32,244 bases of DNA from a virus (taxonomy: Duplodnaviria; Caudoviricetes), in the IMG/VR virus record IMGVR_UViG_3300046103_001452, positions 1 to 32,244 of that record; one strand, given 5' to 3'. A program made the translations under genes and the position numbers. Of this stretch, positions 1-17,595 are shown one piece after another. Each line of letters starts with the position of its first letter. Positions within the stretch are counted from its first letter, which is position 1. The notes below the pieces were generated by a model. That model was not told where the DNA came from. It made no database searches and saw only the letters and a program-made list of their open reading frames with translations.

Positions 1-2128
1 TGGCTCCGCTATCTCCTACAGAGACATTACCACCAAGTTGTCCGCCTAACAGCGCACTACATGGAATATTCGGTAAGTCTTCACACCCAATGAAACTGTA
101 ACGATACCCATCATCCAAAGTATTTATATTTACTACTTTGATATTTGAGTAGCCCAGCGTTAGCAGTAGCTTATCAGTAGCAACCCATCGTACTTCTACT
201 TCTGTACCCTTAGTCTCTGTGGCCTGATTCGTTACAATTGCTTGCGCGGAAAAATCAGTACGTTCCTGCCTATAGTTAGAAATAGCAAAGTAGAGACTAT
301 CATCTAGAAAGCTTCCTTTTATCCCTACTTCCAGCAGTTCTGACTCGTCAAAAGCTCTTCCTTTCAGAATATTTTTAACGGTGACTTCTGCGCCCTGCCC
401 AACAATCATAGTTGACTGTGTAGAGGCTGTGATGTAAGGAATTAGCCCTATTGGAGAATCGTAACTAATACTAGCAGTCCACGATATTCCATCAACTGTA
501 TCTTTGGCATCTAAGTCCGCACAACCTGCAACTGGGCAGAAGTTATTAGAACTAGCAAAGAGAAGTTGTCCCTCTGGCTGGCTGCTTTCCATATCAATTG
601 TGTCATACCGTACACCTGCGAGAATGCCTAAACCATTGTTCCAAACCAAATCTGTCATTACGGCAAATCCTAAGTTTGTGTATTCACCAATGTAATACTC
701 TGTGTAATCAGTATCAATTTTGGTGGATAACAATCGTTTTGCAACTGCTGTATTAGCAGGCTGGCTGAGGTCGCGTCTTCCAAAGTACTCATTTGTATAG
801 TCATCACCGTGTTCGAAATCAGTGTGGCGTATAGACGGAGATACTTGAAAAGATGCGGACATGCTCTCAAAGTCATATGTCTTAGATAGTATGATTTTAT
901 CCTCTACTACCCAACTCTTATGAAATTGTGAGAAACCATATGCATTTTCATTAATGTTATCGTATTCTTCAAAGAACAGTTGGTTCTTCAGCTCCCAGTC
1001 ACTCCCGAGTGCAATAATTACGTCAAAGTACAACGTAGTTACTTGATTCTCTAGGACATCTTCTGGGTCTACTAGAACATTACTTCCATCCAGCTTAGTA
1101 AGCCCGGGATTTATGAGTGCCATATAGGATAGATCACCTACAAATACTTCTAAGTCTGCTAAGGTCTCGTTCGACCCCGCTGTAAGAGCCCCCCCTGGAG
1201 CACCACTTAAGAAATCAAACCTAAAAGGATTGTAGTTAGTGAAACCATCTCCATCAGTATCGTACTCTTGATGAGATACTCTACCATCTCCATTAATATC
1301 TAATGAGGCGGGAGACCCCGTGATGTATGTTCCATCATCAATCAAATCCTGTGTAACTCTATTCCAACCCGCTATCTGATTACCCGAATAGTCATGATAC
1401 ATTCCTCCGAACTGTATTCTAACATTATCCGTGATATCCATATCGAAAGAAGTCTGGAAAAGATTTTGCTCCACTCCTGAGTTATCATAATAACTATCAG
1501 AGTCTTCTAGCTCAGTATACACATAGTATCCTAGGTCTTTACCAAAAACAGTGGCTGGACCTCCAACTTCTGCTGTTAGCGTACTCTTGCCCCAGCTTCC
1601 AGTTGTGTAGGATATAGCACCCTCTGTCTCCGTTATGAACTGACCAGTTTCTTCAATTCGTGCAGACTTAGGGTTAAAGTTTAGATAACCTCCGATCTTA
1701 GAGGGGCCATAGATAGGAGATGCTGGACCTCTTACTATGTCGACTCTATCGGACGCACCTATAGGAGTTGGATAGTTACCTGGGTTGTCAAGACGTCTAA
1801 CACCCCTAAAGTAAGTTTCTCCAGGAGTCCCTCTAACATCAAGACCTCCTGCTACTCCGAAAAAAGACTGCGTAAAACTACCGGGTGCTAAGGCAATTAA
1901 CTCATCAATATCATGCATGTTAAACCTTTCCATCATCTCTTCCGAGATAGTGGAGGCAGAACGGGGAGTCTGTAATAGGGATTTGTTAAAGCCAAATACT
2001 GACTTTACACTCTCCCCTGGCAAGCTGCCTAGGTCTCCTAGTACTACTATTTCTTCCATTGCTGCCGCTCGTGCGCTCATTCCTAGTATAAGAATGGCAA
2101 GTAGACACGTTACTATCTTAATCTTCAA
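1..2128 (-). CDS. TonB-dependent outer-membrane receptor (3' end runs off the window; at least 709 codons)
   Basis: Missing from the ORF track because no stop codon falls in the window. Manual translation from TTG at 2128 (SD GGAG upstream): signal peptide MKIKIVTCLLAILILGMSARA, TonB-box-like EEIVVLG, plug motifs TPRSASTIS and DRVDIVRGPASPIYGPSKIGGYLNF, barrel motifs GSWG, AGVRYD, LLEVGIKG, TKGTEVEVRW, LTLGYS. Frame is open to position 2. Confidence 0.92.
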   Translation of the reverse strand, partial: MKIKIVTCLLAILILGMSARAAAMEEIVVLGDLGSLPGESVKSVFGFNKSLLQTPRSASTISEEMMERFNMHDIDELIALAPGSFTQSFFGVAGGLDVRGTPGETYFRGVRRLDNPGNYPTPIGASDRVDIVRGPASPIYGPSKIGGYLNFNPKSARIEETGQFITETEGAISYTTGSWGKSTLTAEVGGPATVFGKDLGYYVYTELEDSDSYYDNSGVEQNLFQTSFDMDITDNVRIQFGGMYHDYSGNQIAGWNRVTQDLIDDGTYITGSPASLDINGDGRVSHQEYDTDGDGFTNYNPFRFDFLSGAPGGALTAGSNETLADLEVFVGDLSYMALINPGLTKLDGSNVLVDPEDVLENQVTTLYFDVIIALGSDWELKNQLFFEEYDNINENAYGFSQFHKSWVVEDKIILSKTYDFESMSASFQVSPSIRHTDFEHGDDYTNEYFGRRDLSQPANTAVAKRLLSTKIDTDYTEYYIGEYTNLGFAVMTDLVWNNGLGILAGVRYDTIDMESSQPEGQLLFASSNNFCPVAGCADLDAKDTVDGISWTASISYDSPIGLIPYITASTQSTMIVGQGAEVTVKNILKGRAFDESELLEVGIKGSFLDDSLYFAISNYRQERTDFSAQAIVTNQATETKGTEVEVRWVATDKLLLTLGYSNIKVVNINTLDDGYRYSFIGCEDLPNIPCSALLGGQLGGNVSVGDSGA

Positions 2129-2273
2129 GTGGTGCTTCTCCTACGGTAGGCTGCATTTGCGCAGCCGCTTGGTCTTGTACTATTTTAATTACGTTCATAC
2201 TGAGCTTAGCAGGAACTTCTCCTAAACCCTGTAGAACAATGTTTACTTCTTCTATACTTAGTTCAAATTTCAT
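2118..2273 (-). CDS. small hypothetical protein, 51 aa (MKFELSIEEVNIVLQGLGEVPAKLSMNVIKIVQDQAAAQMQPTVGEAPLED)
   Basis: ATG overlaps the nrdB TGA (ATGA); its 3' end overlaps the receptor TTG start; fills the gap exactly. Confidence 0.8.
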   Translation of the reverse strand: MKFELSIEEVNIVLQGLGEVPAKLSMNVIKIVQDQAAAQMQPTVGEAPLED

Positions 2274-3232
2274 TTAAAGATATCCTGCCAGTTACCAGTT
2301 GTACTTGCTCTCGAATATTCTGTAGACCTATTCTCGAAGAAGTTAGTGTGTTCAACCCCGTTGAGCATGTAATCCAACCAGCCTAACGGGTTCTCTGTAC
2401 TCTTAAATATTTTCTTTAGTCCCAGTCCTAATAGTCTGCGATCTGCAATATAACGAATATAGCCTTTTATCTCATCAGGTGTTAGATTGGGTACTTCCGC
2501 ACCTTCAAAACACAAATCAATAAAAGCATCTTCTAGTTCGACTGTGCGCTCTGCTGCACAATAAATTTCATACTTTAGATCATCATTCCATATGTCAGGG
2601 TTCTCCTTTACAAATGCTCGGAACAGATGTGACATTCCTTCAACATGCAAAGTTTCATCTCGTACAGACCATGTGACGATTTGACCCATACCTTTCATAA
2701 GGTTATGTCTCGGAAAGTTCAACAAGATAGCAAAACTACTAAATAGCTGAACTCCCTCGGTAAACCCTGAATAGATAGCCAGTGTCTTAGCGATATCCAT
2801 CGGAGTTTCCATACCAAAATTTCCCAAGTACTCATGTTTATCCAACATTTCTTTATGTTCGAAAAACTTCTGATACTCATCATCGCGGAAACCTAGGGTC
2901 TCCAGCAACAACGAATACGCTTCTTGATGCACTGCTTCCATTGCTGCAAAAGCGGATAGCATCATTCTTACTTCAGGTTGCTTAAATGTAGGTAGATAGT
3001 GCTTTGCATATCCACAGCATACATCTACATCAGCCTGTGTAAAAAACCTAAAAATCTGTCCTAGTAACCTTTTGTTACCTTCAGTCATTTTTTCTCTATA
3101 GTCACGCAGATCGTCTGCAAGGTTAACTTCATCAGGTAACCAGTGCATGTGCTGCTGTTGCTTATAATACTCAAATGCCCAAGGGTAATTAAAAGGCTTA
3201 TAATACTCTCTTTCTACTAATAAATCACTCAT
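2270..3232 (-). CDS. nrdB: ribonucleotide reductase class I beta subunit
   Basis: YPWAFEYY and HWLPDEV; metal ligands in FTQAD, EAVH, TEG, RDETLH; radical Tyr in HQEAYS; C-terminal NFFENRSTEY. Confidence 0.97.
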   Translation of the reverse strand: MSDLLVEREYYKPFNYPWAFEYYKQQQHMHWLPDEVNLADDLRDYREKMTEGNKRLLGQIFRFFTQADVDVCCGYAKHYLPTFKQPEVRMMLSAFAAMEAVHQEAYSLLLETLGFRDDEYQKFFEHKEMLDKHEYLGNFGMETPMDIAKTLAIYSGFTEGVQLFSSFAILLNFPRHNLMKGMGQIVTWSVRDETLHVEGMSHLFRAFVKENPDIWNDDLKYEIYCAAERTVELEDAFIDLCFEGAEVPNLTPDEIKGYIRYIADRRLLGLGLKKIFKSTENPLGWLDYMLNGVEHTNFFENRSTEYSRASTTGNWQDIFK

Positions 3233-3235: not shown

Positions 3236-3400
3236 TCACCAATTATGTACTATGTTTGATGTGATAAACAAACAGGTTACAACATTTATTATTACTATTA
3301 TACTTCTAATACCTGCAATAATATTGTCATACTCTAGTGTCTTATCATCACTGAAACTGCCAATAGTATACTTCCAAATTAACCAGACTTTACCCTTCAC
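3236..3400 (-). CDS. small membrane protein, 54 aa (MKGKVWLIWKYTIGSFSDDKTLEYDNIIAGIRSIIVIINVVTCLFITSNIVHNW)
   Basis: GTG start overlaps the nrdA end; fills the nrdA-nrdB gap; hydrophobic C-terminal helix. Confidence 0.7.
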   Translation of the reverse strand: MKGKVWLIWKYTIGSFSDDKTLEYDNIIAGIRSIIVIINVVTCLFITSNIVHNW

Positions 3401-5159
3401 AAGCTAAACAGCCTTCGTCGTCTATACTGTCAAATATGTACTGACGTAGCGCTTCATCGGAAACCGTCTCTGCGCGCTTTGATGCCTCACTTCTTAGATA
3501 GTATAAAGTTTTTACTTTCTTTTTCCAAGCCATCATGTGAATAGCGTGGAGTTCCTGTTTTGATACGTTAGACGGAAAGAATATATTTAGAGACTGGCTC
3601 TGGCATATCTTCTCCTGTCTGTCCGCTGCCATCTCGATAACCCAACGTTGGTCTATCTCTACAGCAGTCTTGAATACGTCCTTTGTATAATCATCGAGAA
3701 ACTCTAAGTGTTGAACTGAGCCTCCGTTCGTAATAATACTTTTCCAAACGTCATCCGTGTCCTGCCCTATCTCTTGTAGAGCATGTTCTAAGTACTCGTT
3801 CTTCAATAAGGAAGATCCAGATTTAGTTTTTTGAGTAAATGCGTTAGCCCTGTAAGGCTCAATACTGGGAGAAGTATTACCACAAATAATACTGCTGCTA
3901 GCATTAGGAGCCACAGCCAACAGATGAGCATTCCGAACCCCAGCACTAGCCCCATCAGGGCACGGACCACGTTCCACAGCCAGTTCTCTTGTAGCATTTT
4001 CAGCCTCTCCTTTTATAAAGCCGAACATTTTATTGTTCCTGCTTTTTGCCATCGCACTCTCAAAAGGAATGTTGTGGCGTTGTAAATAAGCATGAAAGCC
4101 CATAGCCCCCAGACCTATACTTCTTTCTGCTTTTGCACTTGCTACTGCTCTATATAGCTGTGCAGGGGCAGCATCGCAAAAATGAGTTATCACATTATCT
4201 AGCATTCTTACTAGATCATTTATAAACTGTGGATTATCTTTCCACTCATCATACTCTTCCAAGTTTACACTAGATAGACAACATACTGCTGTACGATTCG
4301 CGTTTGTTGCAAGCGTAATCTCAGAACATAAGTTAGAGTGATTTACCTGCAGCCCTAAGTCTTTCTGGAACTGAGGTAACGCAGCTTGTACAGTGTCTTT
4401 AAACATAATGTACGGTTCGCCTGTCTCAACTCGGTTCTGTATGAGCTTCACCCATAGAGTTTTAGCAGACACAGTCTTAATAACTTTCTTACTATGTGGG
4501 TCAATCAAGTCCCAAGAGTCATCAAAGCCTTCTACTCGCGTAGCCTGCTCTATGATATCCATGAATCTATCATCAATAAGGACACCATGATGTAAATTAA
4601 CTGATTTTCGGTTAACATCGCCGCCTGTAGGCTTGCGAACATCCAGAAACTCTTCAACTTCTGGATGTGATATGTCCAAATATGCTGCATAACTACCTCG
4701 TCTTGTAACTCCCTGAGAAAATGCTAACATCTCAGCGTCCACTACTTTCATGAATGGTATAACACCAGTACTTTCTGATCCATTAGATGTTGTAGACCCT
4801 ACTGAGCGTACAGCGCTCCAAGAGCCCCCAACGCCACCACCCACACTAGATAAGAAGGCATTCTCAGTGTAATGCCCGGTAAGTCCTTGTCTGCTGTCCT
4901 CAACATAATTAAGAAAGCAACTAATAGGCAGCCCACGGGATGTCCCACCATTAGAAAGTATAGGAGTAGAAAACATGAACCAAAGTTTACTAGCATAATC
5001 GTATAGCCTCTGTGCATGAGCATCATCATCTGAAAAAGCCTTAGCAGCTCTTGCAAACGCGTCTTGAGGAGAAGTTTCACCCTCTATTAAGTACCTGTCC
5101 TGTAAAGTTTTATGACTGAACTCCGATAGATAATTATCTCTATCATAATTTATTAACAC
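3390..5159 (-). CDS. nrdA: ribonucleotide reductase class I alpha subunit (short, no ATP cone)
   Basis: STPILSNGG, PISCF, SNLCSEI, VCCLSS, APNASSS, KTLYYLR and C-terminal CLACEG. Confidence 0.97.
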   Translation of the reverse strand: MLINYDRDNYLSEFSHKTLQDRYLIEGETSPQDAFARAAKAFSDDDAHAQRLYDYASKLWFMFSTPILSNGGTSRGLPISCFLNYVEDSRQGLTGHYTENAFLSSVGGGVGGSWSAVRSVGSTTSNGSESTGVIPFMKVVDAEMLAFSQGVTRRGSYAAYLDISHPEVEEFLDVRKPTGGDVNRKSVNLHHGVLIDDRFMDIIEQATRVEGFDDSWDLIDPHSKKVIKTVSAKTLWVKLIQNRVETGEPYIMFKDTVQAALPQFQKDLGLQVNHSNLCSEITLATNANRTAVCCLSSVNLEEYDEWKDNPQFINDLVRMLDNVITHFCDAAPAQLYRAVASAKAERSIGLGAMGFHAYLQRHNIPFESAMAKSRNNKMFGFIKGEAENATRELAVERGPCPDGASAGVRNAHLLAVAPNASSSIICGNTSPSIEPYRANAFTQKTKSGSSLLKNEYLEHALQEIGQDTDDVWKSIITNGGSVQHLEFLDDYTKDVFKTAVEIDQRWVIEMAADRQEKICQSQSLNIFFPSNVSKQELHAIHMMAWKKKVKTLYYLRSEASKRAETVSDEALRQYIFDSIDDEGCLACEG

Positions 5160-5971
5160 GCAAACCTCTCCTTTATCTCGGCAACATTATTTTTACCGAT
5201 AGCTTCATCACAGTAAGTAATCAAATCCATTAATTCGTAGTTCTGTAATATCTGTTCATAGTTCTCATTGAGAGACTCTATATATTTATACTTGCCTGCA
5301 ATAGGTGCTGCGTCGTATATACTGAAGGCATCTCCATACTCTTTTATAAGTCCATAAGCTCTCTTTGGGCCAATGCCAGGAATACCAGGAACGTTATCGC
5401 CCTTATCTCCCGTTAAGCACTTGAGAGAGATGAACTCCTCTGGAGTAACTTCATAATGATCGTACCAATTGTTTATAGTTACTTCTTTTCTGTTTACATA
5501 TGAGAACCTATTTACACCCTCTTGTATAAGTAGATCCCAGTCTCTATCACTAGAGATTAACCACATATTCTCGAACCCAAACTCCTCTTTGTTCTTTACT
5601 AGATGTGCTGCTATATCATCAGCCTCTACTCCAGCGTACTGTAACACAGGCCACTCTATCATATCTAAAGTAGCTTGGTACTCTTCAAAGAACTCTTCAA
5701 ACGCAATTTTTTCTTCTTCCGTCTGGGTTGCGTACTTCTCTTTCCTGTTCCCTTTATAGTCAGATCGTATGCCCTTTCTGTAGCTAGAGGCACCTCCGTC
5801 TGCTGTAATAATTATATCTTTACACTTGTATGAGTCAGCAAACGACTGTACTGTCTTAATATAGTCGTACCTAAAGTCTGACCTTCCTGCGTGCTTCCAA
5901 CGAAATGCTAAGTTAAGAGCGTCTACTACAAGTGTACCCGTCTTTCTCTGGTCGTTAAAACTAATTGCCAT
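5153..5971 (-). CDS. 5'-3' exonuclease / flap endonuclease (T5 D15-like)
   Basis: VDALNLAFR, YKGNR, VEADD, SSDRD, GDKGDNVPGIPGIGPK (H3TH); T5 synteny. Confidence 0.95.
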   Translation of the reverse strand: MAISFNDQRKTGTLVVDALNLAFRWKHAGRSDFRYDYIKTVQSFADSYKCKDIIITADGGASSYRKGIRSDYKGNRKEKYATQTEEEKIAFEEFFEEYQATLDMIEWPVLQYAGVEADDIAAHLVKNKEEFGFENMWLISSDRDWDLLIQEGVNRFSYVNRKEVTINNWYDHYEVTPEEFISLKCLTGDKGDNVPGIPGIGPKRAYGLIKEYGDAFSIYDAAPIAGKYKYIESLNENYEQILQNYELMDLITYCDEAIGKNNVAEIKERFAC

Positions 5972-6404
5972 TTATAAATTCTACCTTTTCTTTATCTAAC
6001 CACTCTTCTGCAAGAGAAACGTAGCAGTCTAAGTCACTTACATACAGATAAGATATGTGTAGAGGACATACTGCCGTACCTACATATACCTTTGATCTGT
6101 TATACTTAAAGAAGAGAAGGGGCTTTTGGCCCCCTCCTTCTGCCTGTATAAGTAACTTTTTCCACCACTGAGTTAGATGATTTGTCTTCTTCTGCGTAAG
6201 TATTTTATCAGTGAGCGGTGACTCAGCATAATTTTTTACTTCTATACAAAAAAAGTTTTTCTCATTTGGAACATATAAATCTCCTTTTAAGTATTCCAAA
6301 GCACCTGACATTGGTACTCTTTCGAACTGAAGATTAGTATGATCTCGTAATAAGTCGCGTACTAGATACTCTCCTCTAGCTCCCTTTGCTCTACTGTCAA
6401 CCAT
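5961..6404 (-). CDS. PD-(D/E)XK endonuclease / Holliday junction resolvase (T5 D14-like)
   Basis: SRAKGARGE, GDL...IEVK; lies between D13 and D15. Confidence 0.88.
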   Translation of the reverse strand: MVDSRAKGARGEYLVRDLLRDHTNLQFERVPMSGALEYLKGDLYVPNEKNFFCIEVKNYAESPLTDKILTQKKTNHLTQWWKKLLIQAEGGGQKPLLFFKYNRSKVYVGTAVCPLHISYLYVSDLDCYVSLAEEWLDKEKVEFINGN

Positions 6405-6405
6405 T

Positions 6406-8199
6406 TTACTCCAATCTACTGATATTTTCTTCTTTCACTACTTCGATCTTATCGAGGAGTGGATGAGTCCAGCCGTGAGATACTATGTATGTATTCAAAT
6501 CTTCTTCGATAAGAACCTCTACCAGCTTCTCGCGACCCGTGTCGTCTAATACTGCAATAACTTCATCTAAGAAAAGTATGTTTAACTTGGACTTAGATAT
6601 ACTACTCATTAGCTTACGAATAGCTATAAGAGTCGCTGTGTTTACTCTGGCTAGCTCTCCTGAAGAAAGTGCGAGAATATCTACTATTTTGCCGTCGTCT
6701 GTAACTTGTACATTTAGCTTATCATTTGATACTACAAACTCTAAAGTAAACCTACCATCAGATAGCTCTGCTAGATAAGTATTCGCCATCTCTTCCAATT
6801 CTTTTACAAGGTTTTCAATCTTGTAAGCAAGAAGTCCATTAGTACTAAATGCTTTCTTCAATATATCCAAATTTGAGGCAAGAGCTTGCTGTGTGTCTAA
6901 GCTCTCTTGCATTTCAGAAAGCTGGCTTAGAAACCCCTCAGTCTGCTCCTGTATTACTTGGATTCTGGTATTGTGCTTTGTTCTTTTTTCATTCTCCTTT
7001 GCTGTGCGCTCCAACTGCTCCTTGCGTTGAAGTAGCTCAGCTCGAACGCTCTCCAACCGTGCCGCAAGCTCGTTCTTATCCAAGAGAGACGTAGGAAGAT
7101 TCCTATCCACACTGCGATAAATTTCTTTCCAATCCGCTTCAAGAGTCTGTAGACGCGTGAACTCATTATTATCCCTTTTAATGCTTTTAATTTCTGTTTC
7201 AATCTTCCCAATTTCTCTCTCCGATACCGATATCTTATCAGTCTCCTCCTTTTTTAAATCCTCTACAAACTCAGAGTCTACTGACTGCTCGCAAGTAGGG
7301 CAAGTATCCCCTAATTGGTTTAACTTTGTTAAGAGCCGTTTTGACCCCGCTGCGATTTGCGTAAAGTTTCCTACTTCTTCCTGTAGTGTATCATACGACT
7401 TCCGTTCCGTTACAGAAGGATTTTGTACGTCCTCTAAATCAATCTGTGCCAGTAAGTCAATTAATTGATTATTCTTAGAGATTTTTTTGTTACGCTCTAA
7501 GATATTTTCAATCTCCTTCGTAAGATGACGGAACTCTTTCTCTTCTTCTTCCGTATTTATTCGTAAATCTAACATGGGAAGTATACTACTATCACTCAAT
7601 TTATTATCTGAGAGCCATTTTTCTATTGTACTAACGGCGGATTGGATTACCAGTATATCCTGTGTTATATCTTTAGACCTTTCTTTGAATACTTCGAACA
7701 GTTCTACATACCCTTCAAGGTGTAATAGATCAATCAAGAACTTTTTACGATTTGTATCTGTGGCAGTTAAAAACTGTAAACTTGCATTTGTACTTTGATA
7801 TACTAACTGAGAGAAAGTCTTGAAGTCTACTCCAATTATCTCCTGTATCGTCTTATAGGTATTAGTGGCAGTATGGCTCGATATATCCTCACCATTCTTT
7901 TCCAACTTTACCTTAACTGTGGTCTTCCTATCTATACTTACTGTATAGTTATCCGTGTCCTTAGTGAAGGTAAGCTGTATATTATAGCCGTCACCTTGAT
8001 ATCTATTAGGAATATCTGCTTTCTTTATGCCTTTTGAATTTTTATTATACAGAGCTTCCTCAATGATTAAAGGTATTGACGACTTTCCAGTGCCATTTGT
8101 TCCAATAATTTGAGTTACGGTATTCTCATCAAGTAGTAACGTATTGTCAGAGCCGTAGCTAAAACAATTATTCCACTGTAGCTGTTTGAGAGTAATCAT
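6406..8199 (-). CDS. SbcC/Rad50-like ATPase (T5 D13-like)
   Basis: Walker A GTNGTGKS, coiled coil with CPTC zinc hook, signature LSSGE, Walker B LFLDE, SH switch. Confidence 0.95.
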   Translation of the reverse strand: MITLKQLQWNNCFSYGSDNTLLLDENTVTQIIGTNGTGKSSIPLIIEEALYNKNSKGIKKADIPNRYQGDGYNIQLTFTKDTDNYTVSIDRKTTVKVKLEKNGEDISSHTATNTYKTIQEIIGVDFKTFSQLVYQSTNASLQFLTATDTNRKKFLIDLLHLEGYVELFEVFKERSKDITQDILVIQSAVSTIEKWLSDNKLSDSSILPMLDLRINTEEEEKEFRHLTKEIENILERNKKISKNNQLIDLLAQIDLEDVQNPSVTERKSYDTLQEEVGNFTQIAAGSKRLLTKLNQLGDTCPTCEQSVDSEFVEDLKKEETDKISVSEREIGKIETEIKSIKRDNNEFTRLQTLEADWKEIYRSVDRNLPTSLLDKNELAARLESVRAELLQRKEQLERTAKENEKRTKHNTRIQVIQEQTEGFLSQLSEMQESLDTQQALASNLDILKKAFSTNGLLAYKIENLVKELEEMANTYLAELSDGRFTLEFVVSNDKLNVQVTDDGKIVDILALSSGELARVNTATLIAIRKLMSSISKSKLNILFLDEVIAVLDDTGREKLVEVLIEEDLNTYIVSHGWTHPLLDKIEVVKEENISRLE

Positions 8200-9127
8200 T
8201 ATAAGTTCCTATAATACTTGATATTTTTTCATTTGGGAGTTCTAGAATGTAAGTTAAGTACTCGGCTAGTTCATCTCCAACACTCATTTCTTTCGTAAGA
8301 ACAAGTGTTGCTTCCGTACTACGTTTTACTACTTTCTTATCTAACAACTCAGAGTTCTTAACTTTTGAAAGGTCTTGTATATCCCCTTCCAGCTCATATA
8401 TTGTGTGATGATAGTCACTAGGTATCATATCATCTGGGTCTTGCACTGTCTTTCTCAGCAATTGAGGCAGCTCAAACCTCTCCCACATCCAAGACCAGTC
8501 TAAGTCATTTATTAGTAAATAACCTGTCTCTACTATGTTTCTATGAAACGAAGTAGTCATAGGACTTCCTGGGTACACAATGTTTTGCTGCGTATTACTA
8601 TGAGCGTGTAAGTCTCCTGCAAATACTACAGGGAAGTCTTCAAATCTTTCTAGCTCAACTTCTGGCTTCACATGCGGTGGGATTTCTCCCCGTACATGAG
8701 TAAACAGAGGCCACTGATTATTAAAGGCTTCTATACTATTCTTTCTATGTAAGTCTGCGTAAGGTAGAACATTGAACCCTCTGTCTTTGTCCACATAGGA
8801 CAGGTCTACAATGTGAATAAAAGGATTGATATCCCTACTCACCTGCTTTAGTTGACTAAAAAAGGTCTTGTTCTTCTTAGTGGCTTCGTGGTTCCCATCA
8901 TAAATTAGAGTAGGTATTCCTACTTGCCTTATGAATGTGAAGTACAACTCCAACTCTTCCATAGTTGGAAGACGATCAAAGAGATCGCCCCCAATTATGT
9001 GCATACTACACTCGTTCTCTATCTCGTGAATTTGAGCAAAGAAAGACTCATATCTTTTCCTTGCCCAGTCAACTGGGACATTCTTCTGTCCCAGTTTCAA
9101 GTGCCAGTCTGCGGTGAATAGAATCAT
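8168..9127 (-). CDS. SbcD/Mre11-like nuclease (T5 D12-like)
   Basis: Metallophosphoesterase motifs ADWH, GDLFD, GNHE, GDLH, YPGS. Confidence 0.95.
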   Translation of the reverse strand: MILFTADWHLKLGQKNVPVDWARKRYESFFAQIHEIENECSMHIIGGDLFDRLPTMEELELYFTFIRQVGIPTLIYDGNHEATKKNKTFFSQLKQVSRDINPFIHIVDLSYVDKDRGFNVLPYADLHRKNSIEAFNNQWPLFTHVRGEIPPHVKPEVELERFEDFPVVFAGDLHAHSNTQQNIVYPGSPMTTSFHRNIVETGYLLINDLDWSWMWERFELPQLLRKTVQDPDDMIPSDYHHTIYELEGDIQDLSKVKNSELLDKKVVKRSTEATLVLTKEMSVGDELAEYLTYILELPNEKISSIIGTYNDYSQTATVE

Positions 9128-9750
9128 CCTACGTTGAATTCTGCTTCAAGAGTGTCATCAACTTCGGATGTACTAGCCTGTCGTACACGATCCAACAACT
9201 CTTTCTGAGCATCAGGAGTCGGGCGAGACATTACTTCGTCCATAGACTTAATCTCAGCTACTAGAGCCATGTCAGCATCGCTGAGAGCTTTGGGCTTGCA
9301 CTTCAGAGCTTGAAGCTGGTACTCTACATTATAGGGCAGAGGGCCAGTCTTTACTCGCTTGAAGATAATATCCCAACCAGTAACTGGGTCAGTAGGATCG
9401 CCGAGGTCTTCAGCGGCACTGATAATTGATTCCCAGAGCTTCTTCTTGAGATTCACAACTTTGATTTCACCGTTGTCAATACACTGTGTAGCGTAGCTCC
9501 AGCCACACTTGAGGTCGGGATAGTACTCACGAACCCAATCTTTTTCTTGATTTGTAAAGGCTTCTGCATCTCGATCAAAAGACAGACACTCCAGAGGAAT
9601 GTTCTTGTCGTTCTCACCTTTCACCCAGTACACATAGCGAGCGAGAATATCGCCACAAATACGCATGCGGTTGTCACCGTCTTTGTACTGAAAAGTACTG
9701 ATGGAAGTTTTCTGTGCAGAACCTTTTTGTTTGTTAAATGATATAGCCAT
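9124..9750 (-). CDS. T5 D11-like probable ssDNA-binding protein
   Basis: Synteny between D10 and D12; acidic C-terminal tail; resembles T5 D11 as recalled. Confidence 0.75.
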   Translation of the reverse strand: MAISFNKQKGSAQKTSISTFQYKDGDNRMRICGDILARYVYWVKGENDKNIPLECLSFDRDAEAFTNQEKDWVREYYPDLKCGWSYATQCIDNGEIKVVNLKKKLWESIISAAEDLGDPTDPVTGWDIIFKRVKTGPLPYNVEYQLQALKCKPKALSDADMALVAEIKSMDEVMSRPTPDAQKELLDRVRQASTSEVDDTLEAEFNVG

Positions 9751-9752
9751 AT

Positions 9753-10154
9753 CTAGTTTTTCTCCATTGGGACTTCTTCGTGAAGGAAATGGATATCATC
9801 ACCTTCTAACCAAAGTAGTCTATTATTGTTTATAAAGATTTCAGGATCTAGTTGCAAGTGCAGTAGATCCAAGGTTATTTTACCGGATGCTTGATACTCG
9901 CCATATGAGCGTAAAGCTGCAAAAGCGATGTATATGCAAACATCTCGGTAAGAATATTTATATAGTTGGTATAGTAGAACGTCAGGGTGAACTAAGAAGC
10001 TCTGCCCAGAAAAATCTATGTTTGAGTACTTGTACACAGGGTCATACTTATTTAAAGGTAAATCCTTGTCAACTAACATTTTGAACACTCGGATGATTTC
10101 GGGTGGATTCGCTTTGCAAGTTTTAAATACTTTATTCCAATTATATAAGAGCAT
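9753..10154 (-). CDS. conserved T5-like hypothetical protein
   Basis: 133-aa ORF between D10 and D11; SD-like TAAGG upstream of ATG. Confidence 0.75.
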   Translation of the reverse strand: MLLYNWNKVFKTCKANPPEIIRVFKMLVDKDLPLNKYDPVYKYSNIDFSGQSFLVHPDVLLYQLYKYSYRDVCIYIAFAALRSYGEYQASGKITLDLLHLQLDPEIFINNNRLLWLEGDDIHFLHEEVPMEKN

Positions 10155-10195
10155 ATTATACCTTAAAATGTCACTAATGTCAAGAACTATTTTTT
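10155..10195 (-). promoter_or_regulatory. sigma70-type phage promoter
   Basis: AAAAAAATAGTTC-TTGACA (10183-10178), 17 nt, TATAAT (10160-10155). Confidence 0.9.
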
Positions 10196-11478
10196 TATAG
10201 TTGGTTTATTTTATACCCCTCTTTGATATAGTACCCCATCCTATTGGAAGCTTGCCGGCGTGCAGTATTCCCCTTTAAGTGTATATCTATAACCACAGGT
10301 GGCTTTTTGTTTTCCTTCTTGCGTATGATACGCCCTATTAGCTGAGTGAGCAGAGGCTCATTATTAACAGGAGTCGCTAGTATCAAACAGCTCAGGTTAT
10401 CCACTGAGATACCTTCTGAGAATATAGCTTGAGTTCCGTACAGTACGTCCTTCCGCCCACTACGCATCTCGTCTATGAGGGTCTCCCTATCTTCGTGCGC
10501 TACATCTCCCGTGACACATATTGCTCTGTCTCCTGTCAGCTCTGCACAGGCTTTCAGAAAATGTACACGATCAGATACTACCAGAACCTTATGCCCCTTT
10601 GCAGCGTAGGCTGCCGCTATGAGAGATACACTATGTCTATACTCCTCCTGGTTACATAGCTGAGTTACTTTGTTAGCCCATGGAGTCCGCTGCCCGTCCA
10701 TGAACCGTATATCCGAAGGGTATATAGTTATAGAGGGAACCATATAGTTCTCCTTGGGAGGCTTAAACACCTTACTTCCAAAGTAATCTCTGAACACAAC
10801 ATGCTTACCGTCCTTTCTCTCAATAGTTCCCGACAGCCCTATCTTATACCTAGCATAGTTTGTGTCTATCACTTTAGAAAACGTCGGAGAGGAGACATGA
10901 TGCATCTCATCTAGTATGATGGTGCCAAACTGCTTATTTATCTTGAGAATATTCCGGTACAAACTTTGGGTATTCCCAATTACAATTGGAGCATCAATTT
11001 CAAACTTACCACTACCTATGATACCAGGAGTAATTCCATATACTTTTTCTACTTCCTTTGCCCACTGGTTTCTTAGAGGTACTGTGTGAACTATGATAAG
11101 TGTTTTCTGTCCCAGCTTGCCAGCAATAGCAAGACCTGTAAAAGTCTTTCCCCAACTGACCCAAGCGTTAATTATAGAGTTGTCTTCGATCTCATCATAA
11201 ACCTCTTGCTGGCTTGGTCGTAGTGGTAACTTAAACTCAGGAAAGTCTACTGGTATATTGATACGCTTATCGACTACTTCGTAGTCAGACGGTATCAAAT
11301 CCGTTCTTCCTATTGGTATACTAACCAGCGTATCACGTACCCTTGCCATATTCTTTATGACAAAGGGAGGGTCTTTCGGATTGAACGAAGGAATAGTATA
11401 GGTAAGTTCTTTGCTTAAAAACTCCTTGTATTCCTGCGTTACCTCAAGGTAAATGCGATTGCTGATTAGTGCTTTTAT
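10195..11478 (-). CDS. SF2 (UvsW-like) helicase, T5 D10-like; probable ATA start at 11478 (track start 11349)
   Basis: LRPSQQE, WGKT, LDEMHH, LSGT, QLIGRIIR. Upstream in-frame KALISNRIYL resembles the recalled T5 D10 N-terminus. Confidence 0.9.
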   Translation of the reverse strand: MKALISNRIYLEVTQEYKEFLSKELTYTIPSFNPKDPPFVIKNMARVRDTLVSIPIGRTDLIPSDYEVVDKRINIPVDFPEFKLPLRPSQQEVYDEIEDNSIINAWVSWGKTFTGLAIAGKLGQKTLIIVHTVPLRNQWAKEVEKVYGITPGIIGSGKFEIDAPIVIGNTQSLYRNILKINKQFGTIILDEMHHVSSPTFSKVIDTNYARYKIGLSGTIERKDGKHVVFRDYFGSKVFKPPKENYMVPSITIYPSDIRFMDGQRTPWANKVTQLCNQEEYRHSVSLIAAAYAAKGHKVLVVSDRVHFLKACAELTGDRAICVTGDVAHEDRETLIDEMRSGRKDVLYGTQAIFSEGISVDNLSCLILATPVNNEPLLTQLIGRIIRKKENKKPPVVIDIHLKGNTARRQASNRMGYYIKEGYKINQL

Positions 11479-12134
11479 AGTCCTATATCCTTCTTAGCGA
11501 TTAAGTATTCTTTTACAAAGTCACTTCTGACAATGTCCCCTACTTCAAAATTAACCATATCAAAGGCTCCCATAGTTTCTAATATCTTTAGAAAGTCTTT
11601 TAGCCCATTATTCTTTAGGTCAGACTGTTCAAAGTCCCCACAGAATATAACTCTACAGTACTGCCCCACTCGGGTGATAATTGAGTCTAGCTCATGAAAG
11701 GTCATGTTCTGGCACTCATCTATCAGTATAACAGAATCTTTCAAAGTTATACCTCGTATGTACGATGTAGTCATAAAGTGTACTAAACCTTTAGTCTTGA
11801 GTATTTGATATGCGTCTCCACGATTAAATAACTCATTTGCAACTTCTTTATACGGTTCTTCATAAACTGAGGCTTTCTCCTTTTCGTTACCAGGTAGAAA
11901 CCCTATGTCTCTTGTTGGTACTGCACTTCGGATTAAGACTAAGTTAGAATACTGTCCTTTAATCATATCATCAAATGCTAAGTAGCAGGAGATAAAGGTT
12001 TTACCCGTACCTGCTACTCCGTGCAGCACTAGATTCTTTTCAGACTCGAATGCAATTAGTTGATTCTTTGTTAAAGGCTCTATCTCTTCTAGCTGAAGAC
12101 CTGAGCCGTTTAAAGTTTTACGCTTGTTACCCAT
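11475..12134 (-). CDS. phoH: PhoH-family ATPase
   Basis: GVAGTGKT, RDIGFLPG, YIRGITL, IDECQN, GDFEQSDL, DIVRS. Confidence 0.95.
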   Translation of the reverse strand: MGNKRKTLNGSGLQLEEIEPLTKNQLIAFESEKNLVLHGVAGTGKTFISCYLAFDDMIKGQYSNLVLIRSAVPTRDIGFLPGNEKEKASVYEEPYKEVANELFNRGDAYQILKTKGLVHFMTTSYIRGITLKDSVILIDECQNMTFHELDSIITRVGQYCRVIFCGDFEQSDLKNNGLKDFLKILETMGAFDMVNFEVGDIVRSDFVKEYLIAKKDIGL

Positions 12135-12141
12135 ATAATTC

Positions 12142-12636
12142 CTATACCTTTCTTCGAGTGTCCTTTAGTTTCCCTTCGGCGTACTCGTACAACATCCAAG
12201 GTGCATCTCCTTGATGTAGTATTCCCGCCCAGGACCTCCCCTCATAAGGAGGCCGTGGAATTGTGAAGGGAATAGTAACTTTATGCACCCACAGTAAAGA
12301 AGCTACCTCTCTATGTTCAACCCTACGAATCTTGTAGTATTTTAACTTACAGAACTGGGTTTTCTCATATATGAAAGGTACGCCTCTTGAATCTATAAAA
12401 GTTTTGTTAGTTTGTTTTATAACCCCTACATGGTTAATAAGAGCTCGACTAAGACGCATTATATCCCTGAAAGGAGTTTGTAGTCTTCGTAAGCCTAGAG
12501 TTTCTCCTGGCTGGTTAGTATCATCTACTAATAGATCATCTACAAAAAGTAGTCCATCAGAATAAGTCCAGTTGCTTGACGGGATCTGGTATACCGGGAA
12601 GGTTACGTGTTGAACGTCCCTGTATGTAATGATCAA
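12142..12636 (-). CDS. conserved T5-like hypothetical protein (between polymerase and D10)
   Basis: 164-aa ORF, TTG start; FPVY...G.TLG.RRL...TRRKV pattern and synteny. Confidence 0.75.
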   Translation of the reverse strand: MIITYRDVQHVTFPVYQIPSSNWTYSDGLLFVDDLLVDDTNQPGETLGLRRLQTPFRDIMRLSRALINHVGVIKQTNKTFIDSRGVPFIYEKTQFCKLKYYKIRRVEHREVASLLWVHKVTIPFTIPRPPYEGRSWAGILHQGDAPWMLYEYAEGKLKDTRRKV

Positions 12637-12781
12637 TTAAAACTCCATTATTATAAATTTTTATATCGGTAGAACCACCGTTTTCTAGTGCTTGAGCCAT
12701 TCCGTATACGCTGCTATTTAAACTATATGAGTAAGACAGGTCTTTTCCTGCCTTACTTGTCCACTTGATATTATAAGTCAT
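12557..12781 (-). CDS. hypothetical protein
   Basis: 74-aa ORF with GGGGG SD-like sequence; overlaps the next gene. Confidence 0.55.
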   Translation of the reverse strand: MTYNIKWTSKAGKDLSYSYSLNSSVYGMAQALENGGSTDIKIYNNGVLIDHYIQGRSTRNLPGIPDPVKQLDLF

Positions 12782-12789
12782 TGAACCCC

Positions 12790-12888
12790 CTAATTGGTCA
12801 TTAGTACTGCGGTTTCAGTTAAAAGATATATAAAAGACAGCCCCATAAGGCACTTCACGAGCTGTGCAAGCCAGCCATGAAGGTTCAT
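12790..12888 (-). CDS. small hydrophobic peptide, 32 aa (MNLHGWLAQLVKCLMGLSFIYLLTETAVLMTN)
   Basis: Starts 1 nt after the iscU stop and fills the gap. Confidence 0.5.
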   Translation of the reverse strand: MNLHGWLAQLVKCLMGLSFIYLLTETAVLMTN

Positions 12889-12889
12889 C

Positions 12890-13261
12890 CTAGTGCTTAC
12901 CTCTGTAGTCTTTGATTGCAGCTTTAATTGCGTCTTCGGCAAGTACGCTACAATGAATCTTTACAGGAGGGAGGGCTAACTCTTCTACTATCTCTACATT
13001 TTTTATACTATTAGCAGACTCTAAAGTTCGCCCTTTTACCCACTCTGTTAGAAGAGAAGAAGATGCAATAGCACTACCACACCCATAGGTTTTGAACACA
13101 GCATCTGTAATGATACCGTCCTCTACTTCTATCTGTAATCTCATAACGTCACCACAGGCTGGTGCTCCCACCATGCCTGTGCCAACCTTATCAGTAATCT
13201 CCATCTTACCCACATTACGTGGGTTTTGATAATGGTCGAGTACTTGTTTACTATAGCTCAT
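12890..13261 (-). CDS. iscU: Fe-S cluster scaffold protein IscU
   Basis: MSYSKQVLDHYQNPRNVG, APACGDVMRL, YGCGSAIAS, LPPVKIHCS (three Cys plus HscA-binding LPPVK). Start reassigned to ATG 13261. Confidence 0.97.
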   Translation of the reverse strand: MSYSKQVLDHYQNPRNVGKMEITDKVGTGMVGAPACGDVMRLQIEVEDGIITDAVFKTYGCGSAIASSSLLTEWVKGRTLESANSIKNVEIVEELALPPVKIHCSVLAEDAIKAAIKDYRGKH

Positions 13262-13841
13262 CGTGACTACCGCTTTTCTTATGTTTATTCCAAGCAAGAA
13301 AGCCGCAGATACGAAGTGCATAATAGGCTAAGTAGTTTAATAATCTAAAGCCATTCACTTCTATACATATATCTCTAAACAACTGATCCATGTACTTCTG
13401 GTCTTGCCACTCATGCTCAAGTACAGAACTATTACGCTTCTTTAACCTAGAATACTTATATCCGTAGTCATGTACAAGACCGCCCATCAATAGAACTCCT
13501 ACAGGGGACAGCCAGATTGCAAGAAACTTAGGGACAGAAGCTCCATCAAAAACAAAGCCTTTAGGTACTATAAACGCATCATCATTAAGCGTATAGTTAA
13601 AGTCTTCTGCTAGTTCCCACTTTCTTGTTCCAGTTAACCACATCCAAATAGCACCCCAAAAGCCTTTCTCGCCTGTTTTAATAGGCAAGGGTCGCATACT
13701 GGGCATATCCTCGTATGTGAAGTTAACTCTGTTTTCTCTTGGTCTTTTGTCAAATACATTGATTAAGAAGCCTGTTAGTACCAGTATGATTAGTATACTC
13801 CATTGCCAGAACGTGCTAGCAAATGCCCAAAGTTCCTCCAT
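13251..13841 (-). CDS. DUF1353-like protein with N-terminal TM helix
   Basis: IVPKGFVFDGASVP...GLVHDYGY...DQLF; start reassigned to MEELW (13841). Confidence 0.8.
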   Translation of the reverse strand: MEELWAFASTFWQWSILIILVLTGFLINVFDKRPRENRVNFTYEDMPSMRPLPIKTGEKGFWGAIWMWLTGTRKWELAEDFNYTLNDDAFIVPKGFVFDGASVPKFLAIWLSPVGVLLMGGLVHDYGYKYSRLKKRNSSVLEHEWQDQKYMDQLFRDICIEVNGFRLLNYLAYYALRICGFLAWNKHKKSGSHDEL

Positions 13842-16098
13842 ATTGTTTCTCGAATTTACCCATAGAGTAGTCATCTCCAACATCGAAGTCACAACCTACA
13901 GGTGCTCCAGGAATTGATATTCCTCTGTCCATTTGTACATATTGCTCTAATTGCTCACAATATCCATCTACCTCTGAGATTGGTACTTCCGCCAATATCG
14001 AGTCGTGCACTAAAGCAAAGATTCTTGCTTTAGACTTAGTGGCTTTTAGGTATGCTTGCATATCTATAGCCCCAAGAAGGTTAATGTCACTAGCAGTAGA
14101 CTGCACCAGAAAGTTAAGACCAGAACGAATGCTATGACTTTTGATGCCCGCGTCTGACGACTTGACATTTGGTAGTCTCCTCTTTCGGCCAAAGAAACTA
14201 TATACAAAGCCATTCTGCTCTATAAATTTATGATTATTCTGTATCCAGTTCTTTAGTTGAAAGAAAGACTGAAAGTAATCATCAATAACTTCTTTTGCTT
14301 CTTGCTGACTAAAATAAGAGCCAGAGTCTTTTGTGACTTGCTCACTGATCTTCTTAGGGCCAGCGCCGTACATAATACCAAAAGTAACAGCTTTAGCAGC
14401 CTGTCGTTCCTTTGAAAATAAACTTGCAACGTCTTCTACTTCACAGTTTAGTTTGAATACTGTCTTTGCAATTGAACTATGAAAGTTACCGCCTGAGCGA
14501 AATACTTCTATAAGGGCCTTGTCCTCTGCCAGAACTGCAGCTACATATACTTCTGCAGTTGTTAAGTCCATTGCTACTATCTTATGGCCTTCCGCAGCTC
14601 TGATACAACCTTTTACAATAGGGTTATCCCTAGGTAGTTGTTGCATATTAAGTTTACCACTAGAGCTAAGACGGCCACTAGTAGTACTGTGGAGATTGAA
14701 GCCTGTGCGTAACCGACTATCTCTATCCAACTGCGGTATGATTTTGTCCAAGTAAGTATTCTTAATTTTGGATCGTTGACGTATGTTAAGGATAAGTCCA
14801 GGAACTTCAGATTGGGATGCAAGTTCGCCGAGTACTTCTGCATCCGTTGAGTTAGCTCCTGTTCCTGTTTTCTTACCAGTAGGACGTAGACCGAGAAAAT
14901 CAAAAAGGAGGCTACGAAGCTGGACAGTGCTGTTAGGATTAAAATCTTTTCCATTTATCTTCTCGAATTTGTTAATTGCAGGGTCACTGTATAGTGTACT
15001 AATAGCTTCATCAATCTGCGTTTGCATAAGGTCTTGAGATACCTGAAGCCTATTCCTATCGAAAGGCACACCATTATCTTGTACACTTATAAGAAACCTA
15101 GTACCTGGAATAAGTAAGTTGTCATATACTTTTTTGAGCTTGGGGTTCTGCTTAATTTTTACGAACTTCTCAAAGAGAATGAACGTACATAAAGCATCCA
15201 TAGCCGCATATGTTTTCATCACGTCAAAAGGAATAGACGCCCACTGGAAGTCAGCCTTTAGTACGCCGTGCTCTTTTCTATAGTTATCCATCCACTCGTA
15301 CATTGGCTTCTCGTAATCGCCATAGACTGTATACTTGATAGACAGAGGCTTAAGGCCGTGCCCTCCAGGGTTCTCGTCTATGAGGTAATGGAGCAACATT
15401 GTGTCTTCTATAGACGGAAAGTTAAAGTTAAAATGGTACTCAAAGAACGCTACGTCGAACTTTGCATTGTGGAATATTACTGTCTTTTTAGTAAATAGTT
15501 CTTGCAGTAACGCTTCAGTAGTCTCATCAAAGCACTCGGTATTAATATAAGCACCTTGGACACCATCAAAACATAATGATATACCGAGTATATGGCCGTC
15601 CCTAGGATATAACCCAGTCGTCTCCGAATCGAGCGCCACATAAGTAGTTTCATGGTCAATAGCCGCTTGTATAAAGCTGTTACACTGGGTAGTATCTTCG
15701 ATTCCGATAGCAACTGTTTCATCTACTATTACCTCCTCAACTAAGCCTTTAATATGGTTAATGATACTTTCTTTAGAAGTTTCCCACGTCTTACGAGCCT
15801 CAGGTTTGAATGTGAGCATCGCAGGGTTAATTACAGGTAAAAATTTCTTTTCTACTTTCTTGCCGGAGTACTCCGTTACTGAATTAATTTTGGTAAAGTA
15901 CTTAAGCGCGTCACTACCTACTAGTATAACCCAGTCGTAGTGGTCTGTGTTTATATCAATATCACAGTCTCGCTTCAATACTTTCTTGATAGTTGGATCA
16001 GAGCATAGCTGATATTGATCAAAGTCGAACTCGTCATCGAATTCTCGTCTGTAATCAGTTCTACCCTTTTTAGTTTCTACTAAGGCAACTCTAGCCAT
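13816..16098 (-). CDS. polA: family A DNA polymerase with 3'-5' exonuclease (T5-like)
   Basis: Exo DSET and HNAKFD; TSGRLSS; motif A DLTTAEV; motif B RQAAKAVTFGIMYG (Phe at E. coli 762); motif C VHDS. Confidence 0.97.
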   Translation of the reverse strand: MARVALVETKKGRTDYRREFDDEFDFDQYQLCSDPTIKKVLKRDCDIDINTDHYDWVILVGSDALKYFTKINSVTEYSGKKVEKKFLPVINPAMLTFKPEARKTWETSKESIINHIKGLVEEVIVDETVAIGIEDTTQCNSFIQAAIDHETTYVALDSETTGLYPRDGHILGISLCFDGVQGAYINTECFDETTEALLQELFTKKTVIFHNAKFDVAFFEYHFNFNFPSIEDTMLLHYLIDENPGGHGLKPLSIKYTVYGDYEKPMYEWMDNYRKEHGVLKADFQWASIPFDVMKTYAAMDALCTFILFEKFVKIKQNPKLKKVYDNLLIPGTRFLISVQDNGVPFDRNRLQVSQDLMQTQIDEAISTLYSDPAINKFEKINGKDFNPNSTVQLRSLLFDFLGLRPTGKKTGTGANSTDAEVLGELASQSEVPGLILNIRQRSKIKNTYLDKIIPQLDRDSRLRTGFNLHSTTSGRLSSSGKLNMQQLPRDNPIVKGCIRAAEGHKIVAMDLTTAEVYVAAVLAEDKALIEVFRSGGNFHSSIAKTVFKLNCEVEDVASLFSKERQAAKAVTFGIMYGAGPKKISEQVTKDSGSYFSQQEAKEVIDDYFQSFFQLKNWIQNNHKFIEQNGFVYSFFGRKRRLPNVKSSDAGIKSHSIRSGLNFLVQSTASDINLLGAIDMQAYLKATKSKARIFALVHDSILAEVPISEVDGYCEQLEQYVQMDRGISIPGAPVGCDFDVGDDYSMGKFEKQYGGTLGIC

Positions 16099-16918
16099 AT
16101 AACTTCTTCCTTAATTTATCTACTGAAGTTTGAGTAAGTGCACCAGGATCAGTATCCTTGAAATGGATATTCCTAGCTACGAGACCAGCTTTCTCACACT
16201 CACTCTTTAGTTTCTCTGCCGCTGTCTGACCTGCGTCATCCCCGTCAAAGAATATTTCTACATACTCTGCGCCTTGTACACGCAGCATTGAGAGCTTACT
16301 CTCATTATAATTGTTCGTTCCAAAACAACATACAGCATTAGTCAAACCTTTATCGTGCAAGTTTATCATATCGTAGATACCTTCTACAAGTATAACAGAG
16401 CTTTGTATAAACTCTACTATAGGAAAGAAAGGTAGTCTAGCCCCAGGGGGAGTAAACTTATACTTAGGTATACCATTACCGGTATGCCTACCTTGAAACG
16501 CAACTATATTACCTGATATATCCCGTATGGGAAATACTATTCTACCTACATAATCTGCCGCAGCGTGCTGGAAAGCTTCAAACTTTCTATAAGTTTCTGG
16601 ACGTATACCCCTCCAGTTTCCTACATACGGCAAAGTATTTTGGGGAAAGGACAAACCAACACTTTCGGAGCGCTTTTGTGTAAGCTTCTTCTTAAAAAGG
16701 TCTCTCTGTTGTTGTAGCTGATTTGCCCTTTCCCCAAAATGATTAAATAAGTTACCCTTAAATCCACACGAAAAGCACTGAAAGATGCCAGTAATCTGGT
16801 CAATCCTCATACTAGGATTTCTATCCTCATGCTCAGGGCTTAGACACTTTACTAGAAAGTCTGCACCCTTCTGCATAAAGTATACGTCATGCTCTTTTAA
16901 GATTCTTTCTATGTCCAA
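16091..16918 (-). CDS. dnaG: DNA primase
   Basis: Zn finger CLSPEH...CFSC; TOPRIM LVEGIYD, FDGDDAG, DPG. Confidence 0.95.
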   Translation of the reverse strand: MDIERILKEHDVYFMQKGADFLVKCLSPEHEDRNPSMRIDQITGIFQCFSCGFKGNLFNHFGERANQLQQQRDLFKKKLTQKRSESVGLSFPQNTLPYVGNWRGIRPETYRKFEAFQHAAADYVGRIVFPIRDISGNIVAFQGRHTGNGIPKYKFTPPGARLPFFPIVEFIQSSVILVEGIYDMINLHDKGLTNAVCCFGTNNYNESKLSMLRVQGAEYVEIFFDGDDAGQTAAEKLKSECEKAGLVARNIHFKDTDPGALTQTSVDKLRKKLYG

Positions 16919-16920
16919 TA

Positions 16921-17061
16921 CTATCTCTCATGGGGTTTATAATCTGATTCTTCTTCTTGACCATCGAAGTTAAGATCAAGCATCTCTCTTACTTTCCTTC
17001 TGTAGTCGGCTCCTTGTAGCTTATCCAACCACTCAAGAATTTCTTTGGTATCATCCTCCAT
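16921..17061 (-). CDS. small acidic protein, 46 aa (MEDDTKEILEWLDKLQGADYRRKVREMLDLNFDGQEEESDYKPHER)
   Basis: Fills the gap directly upstream of the primase. Confidence 0.6.
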   Translation of the reverse strand: MEDDTKEILEWLDKLQGADYRRKVREMLDLNFDGQEEESDYKPHER

Positions 17062-17065
17062 TGCG

Positions 17066-17284
17066 TCAATCCCAGAACTTGGTGTCCTCTTCTACCATTT
17101 TAGGTAGACAATAAGCAGTTATTATATTTTGGGTGTACAAATAAGGATATTTATCATCCTTGAAGCTACCCGTCTGTACTTTATATGCAAAGTAGTTGCA
17201 TCTATTTATATCGTTGAAGTACATATCCTCGGTTACAGCAGGGGTTCCTTCTATCAAGACGACTAACAGAAACCCTAGTATCAT
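17066..17284 (-). CDS. hypothetical protein with hydrophobic N-terminus and two Cys
   Basis: 72-aa ORF abutting its neighbours. Confidence 0.65.
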   Translation of the reverse strand: MILGFLLVVLIEGTPAVTEDMYFNDINRCNYFAYKVQTGSFKDDKYPYLYTQNIITAYCLPKMVEEDTKFWD

Positions 17285-17569: not shown

Positions 17570-17595
17570 GACAGCTCCGTTGAATTTGAAAGTAT

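Follow-up and report, generated by a model that had tools for sequence, protein, structure and literature searches.

A TonB-dependent transporter encoded behind ribonucleotide reductase in marine T5-like phages is a candidate importer of purines

What might a phage gain from a gene for an energised outer-membrane transporter placed directly behind its ribonucleotide reductase? The question is raised by the IMG/VR record IMGVR_UViG_3300046103_001452, a contig of 32,244 nucleotides from a T5-like marine phage (analysed over its whole length and hereafter called the window), in which an open reading frame (ORF) for a TonB-dependent transporter (TBDT; hereafter the receptor) lies on the minus strand together with the replication module and runs off the contig end. 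We propose, with a probability of roughly 0.6, that this receptor imports purine nucleosides or bases and would thereby feed host salvage and the ribonucleotide reductase (RNR). A preliminary description of the DNA had listed nucleotide supply among several conceivable roles, and it is this option that the purine loci of the bacterial orthologues favour.

The receptor is a complete phage gene of host origin that is under purifying selection and, in independent contigs, has viral neighbours on either side. It is present in nine IMG/VR contigs (81-99% identity, some of them from the same phage), where it invariably comes next after nrdB and a small ORF of 51-55 amino acids. In contig L001 (96.6% DNA identity over 9.4 kb) the protein is 99.6% identical, reaches its full 814 amino acids, ends in a C-terminal Phe (as do all aligned rows shown), and is followed by a terminator-like hairpin and then by convergent phage genes; as terminator-like sites number 8 against 4.3 expected, the hairpin is suggestive only. 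Truncation of the gene is accordingly rejected. The phage-like usage of CTA, ATA and GTA pointed out in the preliminary description (0.28 of Leu, 0.35 of Ile and 0.56 of Val codons) extends to the third-position GC content (0.33, as compared with 0.32-0.41 in other window genes) and to the relative synonymous codon usage, which correlates at r = 0.77 with that of ten other window genes (phage core), whereas r is 0.13 or less for 45 of the 46 bacterial orthologues and the one above this value comes from a locus of 39% GC. In four DNA runs (which may be the window's source) depth was level across the junction in every case (e.g., 200.8 vs 206.3 in X7), and single DNA contigs bridged it in X1 and X3; an 8.6-kb contig covers window positions 1-6000 without a difference and continues for about 2 kb beyond, and another covers 1-2948. 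Within the clade to which the receptor belongs (clade A), synonymous divergence is near-saturated and dN/dS amounts to 0.016-0.062 (17 of 21 pairs, the other four being saturated). The receptor is cut by the contig end in the window, which could suggest that the assembly is chimeric or that a neutral piece of host DNA was inserted recently; the recurrence of the same position in separately assembled contigs, the phage codons, the near-saturated synonymous sites with dN/dS of about 0.05, the level depth and the bridging contigs rule this out, leaving it virtually no probability, and the earlier argument against a host-contig junction stands.

RNA-library contigs cover the receptor in four of four metatranscriptomes, and two of them bridge nrdB and the receptor. 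As these contigs give neither strand nor level, and DNA carry-over was uncontrolled (no silent control), they are weak evidence of expression during infection; a fade of RNA cover after the receptor (X16, X20) was not used as evidence, since RNA depth cannot rank genes.

The protein has the build that the preliminary description had read from its plug and barrel motifs. The plug domain PF07715 matched well over its threshold (E 9.6e-12, 45.8 bits vs a cut-off of 23.9), and an AlphaFold2 model of a full-length relative, based on 122 sequences, yielded a confidently folded plug and a 22-strand barrel (mean predicted local distance difference test score, pLDDT, 91.3; predicted template modelling score 0.90). 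This model supersedes an earlier, poor one (15 sequences, pLDDT 48), and the 22 long strands (residues 169-813) are present in both. The Pfam barrel model PF00593 did not match the window protein, yet it is listed for several close orthologues. The top Foldseek matches were all TBDTs (E 5e-37, template modelling (TM) scores 0.62-0.68) at an identity of only 11-15%; the PDB sequence search gave weak, plug-region matches to three TBDTs, and 50,697 cultured phage records contained no full-length receptor relative (five weak matches, 22-29% identity). The signal peptide and TonB box suggested earlier agree with our reading by eye and with the alignment: an E-x-V-V-x-G segment, a putative TonB box by comparison with known TBDTs, occupies the expected position before the plug and is common to phage and bacterial rows. 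A long extracellular loop carries an EF-hand-like acidic segment which, judging by the motif, may bind Ca2+. Two Cys pairs (531/536 and 682/690) lie in predicted extracellular loops and are kept in close orthologues.

The closest bacterial proteins (72-75% identity over the full length) belong to metagenome-assembled genomes of marine Pseudomonadales, some labelled Ca. Azotimanducaceae; other orthologue records bear the labels OM182 and K189A clade, a 58% orthologue occurs in the cultured Congregibacter brevis, and 111 of 251 genomes in a donor-family sample held a receptor match at E 1e-50 or better. A purine salvage or catabolism gene was present within 8 kb of the orthologue in 42 of 50 bacterial loci. 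The neighbours included genes of the NUP family (PF06516, 33 loci), secreted adenosine-deaminase-like proteins (31), AzgA-like NCS2 permeases (23), adenosine deaminases (22), PuuE (17), purine phosphoribosyltransferases (PRTases; 14), xanthine-permease-like NCS2 proteins (13), allantoicase (12), ureidoglycolate lyase (11) and urease (6). For comparison, the distance to NCS2, adenosine deaminase and purine PRTase genes was determined for a control set of 101 plug-bearing genes from five genomes: eight lay within 10.5 kb of such a marker, five of which were the very orthologues by which the genomes had been chosen, leaving 3 of 96 other TBDTs (a background lowered by the short contigs of these draft genomes). 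The chromosomal TBDT of marine Pseudomonadales is like the phage receptor in plug, TonB-box-like segment and C-terminus and resides among adenosine deaminase, NUP-family, NCS2 and PRTase genes, whereas the phage took the receptor alone and carries it in its own codon usage. It is likely that the phage receptor was taken from a purine-scavenging locus of this order. Separately, an Alteromonadaceae genome was seen to hold three tandem copies of the receptor family within a purine locus (L027:7965-16000).

These neighbourhoods also bear on the earlier suggestion that the receptor could feed the metal-dependent RNR, and on a supply of vitamin B12: siderophore-bound iron, or some other metal, might be imported to equip NrdB's di-metal centre or the assembly of Fe-S clusters. 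The best family match is indeed the siderophore receptor model TIGR01783, the best-matching folds are siderophore receptors, and both IscU and an IscA-like protein are encoded on the window. However, the match (108.3 bits) stays under its cut-off of 223.5, identity to the solved structures is as low as given above, no siderophore genes recurred among the neighbour clusters examined, the BtuB/B12 model TIGR01779 reached 28.6 bits against a cut-off of 599.7, and the RNR is of class I. With the orthologues lying in purine loci, a metal or B12 supply for the RNR found no support, and metal import appears very unlikely.

The same receptor family has entered phages elsewhere. Viral loci recovered by a profile scan number 22: nine form a second clade (clade B, about 60% identity to clade A), and the other 13 belong to clade A. 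Clade B, with dN/dS values of 0.038-0.072, opens the packaging region and is followed there by the genes for terminase, portal and prohead protease (as observed at six of the nine loci; two contigs end in the gene). Both clades are monophyletic (100/100 each), clade A grouping with Azotimanducaceae-labelled rows and clade B with K189A-labelled ones (100/98), and a single origin of the two was rejected by the approximately unbiased test (p = 0.0095; 29 of the 80 tree rows, trees under LG+G4). Judged by these trees, clade B is a separate acquisition of the same receptor family. The clade B loci (L065-L072 and L074) have PPK2 upstream in some cases.

At the nrdB junction the overlap chain reported in the preliminary description proved exact: the stop codon of nrdB and the ATG of the 51-aa ORF overlap (ATGA), the stop of that ORF in turn overlaps the receptor TTG by 11 nt, and none of the sites in a promoter scan (20 vs 17.6 expected) fell in the stretch from nrdB to the receptor. 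A cargo slot of variable, swappable content follows nrdB. Among the 80 best nrdB relatives (drawn from 29 of 64 database parts; several loci end before the slot can be read) it held a clade A receptor in four, another TBDT in two, a TorF-type porin in six and a 2-oxoglutarate (2OG)-Fe(II) oxygenase in five, with small ORFs or nothing in the remaining loci; a small linker ORF was found in 29 of the 80, ahead of all 12 outer-membrane cargo genes seen there. As had been inferred, the phage encodes an outer-membrane importer of its own; the importer is intact, and its gene is coupled to those that close the replication unit. The wording that this importer is 'wired into' the RNR operon is apt as regards its coupling after nrdB here, but not as a general rule, for the slot is swappable and the same family precedes terminase in clade B. 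Because the family also occurs beside terminase, the link to the RNR would be more metabolic than regulatory, even though the gene is coupled to nrdB here.

In sister phages the slot after nrdB is occupied by a second TBDT of 756 amino acids (L094:7103-9373), unrelated to the first (20-24% identity to the 814-aa receptor, over two short stretches). Further phage copies (L098, L154-L157, L173-L184) are found after nrdB, convergent with nrdB, or adjoining the small terminase subunit; together the phage copies form one clade with dN/dS of 0.023-0.128. Of 68 metagenome loci with this family, 15 were set aside as phage (phage neighbours or >=83% identity to a phage protein), and a purine gene was present in 48 of the 53 non-phage ones, the five misses being contigs of 1-2.8 kb. 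The usual arrangement is AzgA-like permease, TBDT and purine PRTase (PRTase in 40 and NCS2 in 32 of the 53). As the family was found via the slot, and not via purine genes, its purine link constitutes a fair test against the background of about 3-8%. Some contigs appear (by eye, from the labels) to carry the module between guaB and guaA. Taking both families together, the balance tips modestly towards the view that the outer-membrane step of purine salvage was taken up by marine T5-like phages on three or more separate occasions, from two unrelated, undescribed TBDT families, so that seawater purines would pass into phage DNA.

The same importer could instead serve mainly for nitrogen, if host catabolism (through xanthine, allantoin and urea to ammonia) supplied virion proteins and de novo nucleotide synthesis. 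The catabolic genes counted at the donor loci (PuuE, allantoicase, ureidoglycolate lyase and urease) fit this, as does the G022 copy of the 756-aa family, which has genes for guanine deaminase, allantoicase, allantoinase and related functions next to it (a full catabolic cluster), and SAR11 is described as using purines for nitrogen, carbon or energy (PMC11698098). Yet the commonest setting of the 756-aa family is the minimal salvage module of permease, TBDT and PRTase, and clade A and most copies of the 756-aa family adjoin nrdAB; we regard nitrogen as an unlikely main gain.

A different reading would make the purine origin incidental and the receptor a means of remodelling the surface, be it as a decoy or altered receptor, for superinfection exclusion, or as a sink for TonB against TonB-dependent phages. 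T5 does bind the TBDT FhuA (titles of PDB 8b14 and 8a8c), genes for other outer-membrane proteins occur in the same slots (TorF-type porin, Phage_OMP-like barrel), and the extracellular loops are 70% identical to those of the nearest bacterial rows, as compared with 78% among these bacterial kin. The loops are, however, conserved within each phage clade (88-95%) and not diversifying, and conservation is highest in the plug (90% to bacteria, against 73% for the strands, and 93% within clade A). Conserved positions are those of a working transporter: 240 of the 250 columns in which at least 95% of the 46 bacterial rows agree are unchanged in every clade A row, with plug, TonB-box-like segment and terminal Phe retained. 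Moreover, a purine link in both of two unrelated families is not expected under this reading (background 3/96 to 8/101), and exclusion by T5 itself works via the lipoprotein Llp (title of PDB 8a60). We consider it rather unlikely.

We envisage purine import by the receptor as follows. The gene would close the replication transcription unit and be translated by coupling; the host Sec system would export the protein, the host BAM machinery would fold it and host TonB-ExbBD would energise it, steps modelled on established TBDT biology. Purines reaching the periplasm would then pass through a host AzgA/NCS2 permease and a PRTase to nucleoside mono- and diphosphates, which the phage NrdAB would convert to deoxynucleoside diphosphates, with a saving of nitrogen and energy. 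The phage importer may stand in where the uptake genes of the host are absent, or become repressed or destroyed during infection; T5 breaks down the DNA of its host early on, and a copy of the importer on the phage genome would therefore be useful.

Several observations weigh against purine import. The substrate is predicted from gene neighbourhood, and the searches turned up neither a structure nor an assay for any family member. Eight of the 50 bacterial loci are without a purine gene, several more distant paralogues (34-49%) have other gene contexts, distant relatives of the 756-aa family (42-48%) were without purine neighbours at three of three loci, and the 53 metagenome loci of that family are related rather than 53 independent events. 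TorF-type porins and 2OG-Fe(II) oxygenases occur in the slot as well, and most related phages are without the receptor (present at 4 of 80 nrdB loci). A PRTase was not found in five partial phage contigs (30-45% complete, one plug gene each), and TonB, permease and PRTase of the host are assumed; a search with the D5-like phage protein of 401 genomes of the donor's order gave no match, but lacked a positive control and is hence uninformative as to the host.

Viruses are known to supply their hosts with the uptake step for a limiting nutrient, as in the case of cyanophage PstS and viral ammonium transporters. Those proteins are periplasmic or in the inner membrane and handle phosphorus or ammonium, whereas the phage TBDT is an energised outer-membrane gate, predicted to serve purines. 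The siderophore TBDTs FpvA, PiuA, FoxA, FhuA and Fiu share its plug and 22-strand barrel (at the TM scores given above and at 13-15% identity), but the phage receptor has longer extracellular loops, falls under every NCBIfam cut-off and relates to a purine, not an iron, context. PHROG 5687 (function unknown, 760 positions) matched weakly (E 3e-7, residues 38-156 only) and by this criterion does not belong to the same family. That phages encode TBDTs is already known: the megaphage Mar_Mega_1 encodes a SusC-like one that is likewise proposed to raise nutrient uptake in infection, though, going by its description, with carbohydrate as the proposed cargo and in a megaphage rather than a T5-like phage (PMC9723777). 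Purine cross-feeding in the ocean has been reported in a paper whose main text is without the words 'TonB', 'outer membrane' and 'phage' (PMC11698098), and our literature search, which did not extend to the supplements on auxiliary metabolic genes in viromes, found no relevant paper on a purine-linked TBDT or on a TBDT in a T5-like phage. Phage-encoded TBDTs are rarely reported, and then with a proposed cargo; here purines are indicated by gene context, by the background control and by repeated capture alike. If correct, phages would tap the purine cross-feeding network of the ocean directly to build their genomes, by means of a virus-encoded nucleobase or nucleoside importer, and the choice made by phages would mark two new TonB-dependent substrate classes. 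Two transporter families can be named as amenable to assay, one of them with an orthologue in a cultured bacterium.

Table 1. Positions of the receptor, its parts and the adjoining genes in the window
Feature	Positions	Strand	Remarks
TBDT, first 709 of 814 codons, TTG start	2..2128	-	cut by contig end; full length in L001
Probable Sec signal peptide, residues 1 to ~23	2060..2128	-	by eye; N-terminus of low confidence in model
TonB-box-like segment, residues 25-31	2036..2056	-	E26, V28, V29 and G31 invariant in alignment A1
Plug domain PF07715, residues 52-147	1688..1975	-	profile match
EF-hand-like acidic 12-residue segment, residues 277-288	1265..1300	-	in long extracellular loop; common to bacterial orthologues
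Shine-Dalgarno-like AGGAG	2138..2142	-	from sequence; 9 nt before TTG, inside 51-aa ORF
51-aa phage ORF linking nrdB to cargo slot	2118..2273	-	no Pfam or PHROG match; Atlas matches hypothetical only
nrdB, class I RNR small subunit	2270..3232	-	PF00268, phrog_86
54-aa ORF, function unassigned	3236..3400	-	phrog_1679
nrdA, class I RNR large subunit	3390..5159	-	PF02867, PF00317, phrog_84
T5-like replication module	5153..21553	-	strand as TBDT; Pfam and PHROG matches

The replication module comprises genes for a 5' exonuclease, resolvase, SbcCD, single-stranded DNA-binding protein, helicase, PhoH, IscU, PolA, primase, DnaB, a D5-like regulator and a split NAD ligase, while ThyX, lysis genes and the class I nrdAB pair were identified elsewhere in the window (Pfam and PHROG matches). 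PolA has its best matches (44-45% identity) in Aeromonas and Vibrio phages, which we take to be T5-like. Genes connected with the nucleotide pool encode PhoH (11475-12134), a dATP/dGTP diphosphohydrolase (23621-24076), ThyX (25238-25903) and two MazG-like pyrophosphatases (28263-28670 and 30977-31240), and those for Fe-S assembly encode IscU (NifU_N, 12890-13321) and the IscA-like protein (26344-26658).

As for the cargo slot, two alleles of the linker ORF, of 51 and 55 aa (window 2179-2269; L001:7151-7318), co-occur in X7 and X12. The putative porins of the TorF family (Gcw_chp, PF09694; L002:4899-5483, L065:10527-11099, L095:7114-7701) stand right after a receptor or alone in the slot, and the 2OG-Fe(II) oxygenases are found at L112:7102-7746 and L125-L127. 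A small exported protein adjoins receptors at L069:2803-3126, L065:7598-7876 and L181:567-863, the Atlas features of the L069 copy pointing to Phage_OMP (PF24653, score 0.96). Finally, the unrelated receptors at L006:4719 and L094:7103 start with eight identical residues, and the DNA downstream of the small ORF is nearly the same in both, a hint that cargo may be exchanged by recombination in or near the start of the signal peptide.

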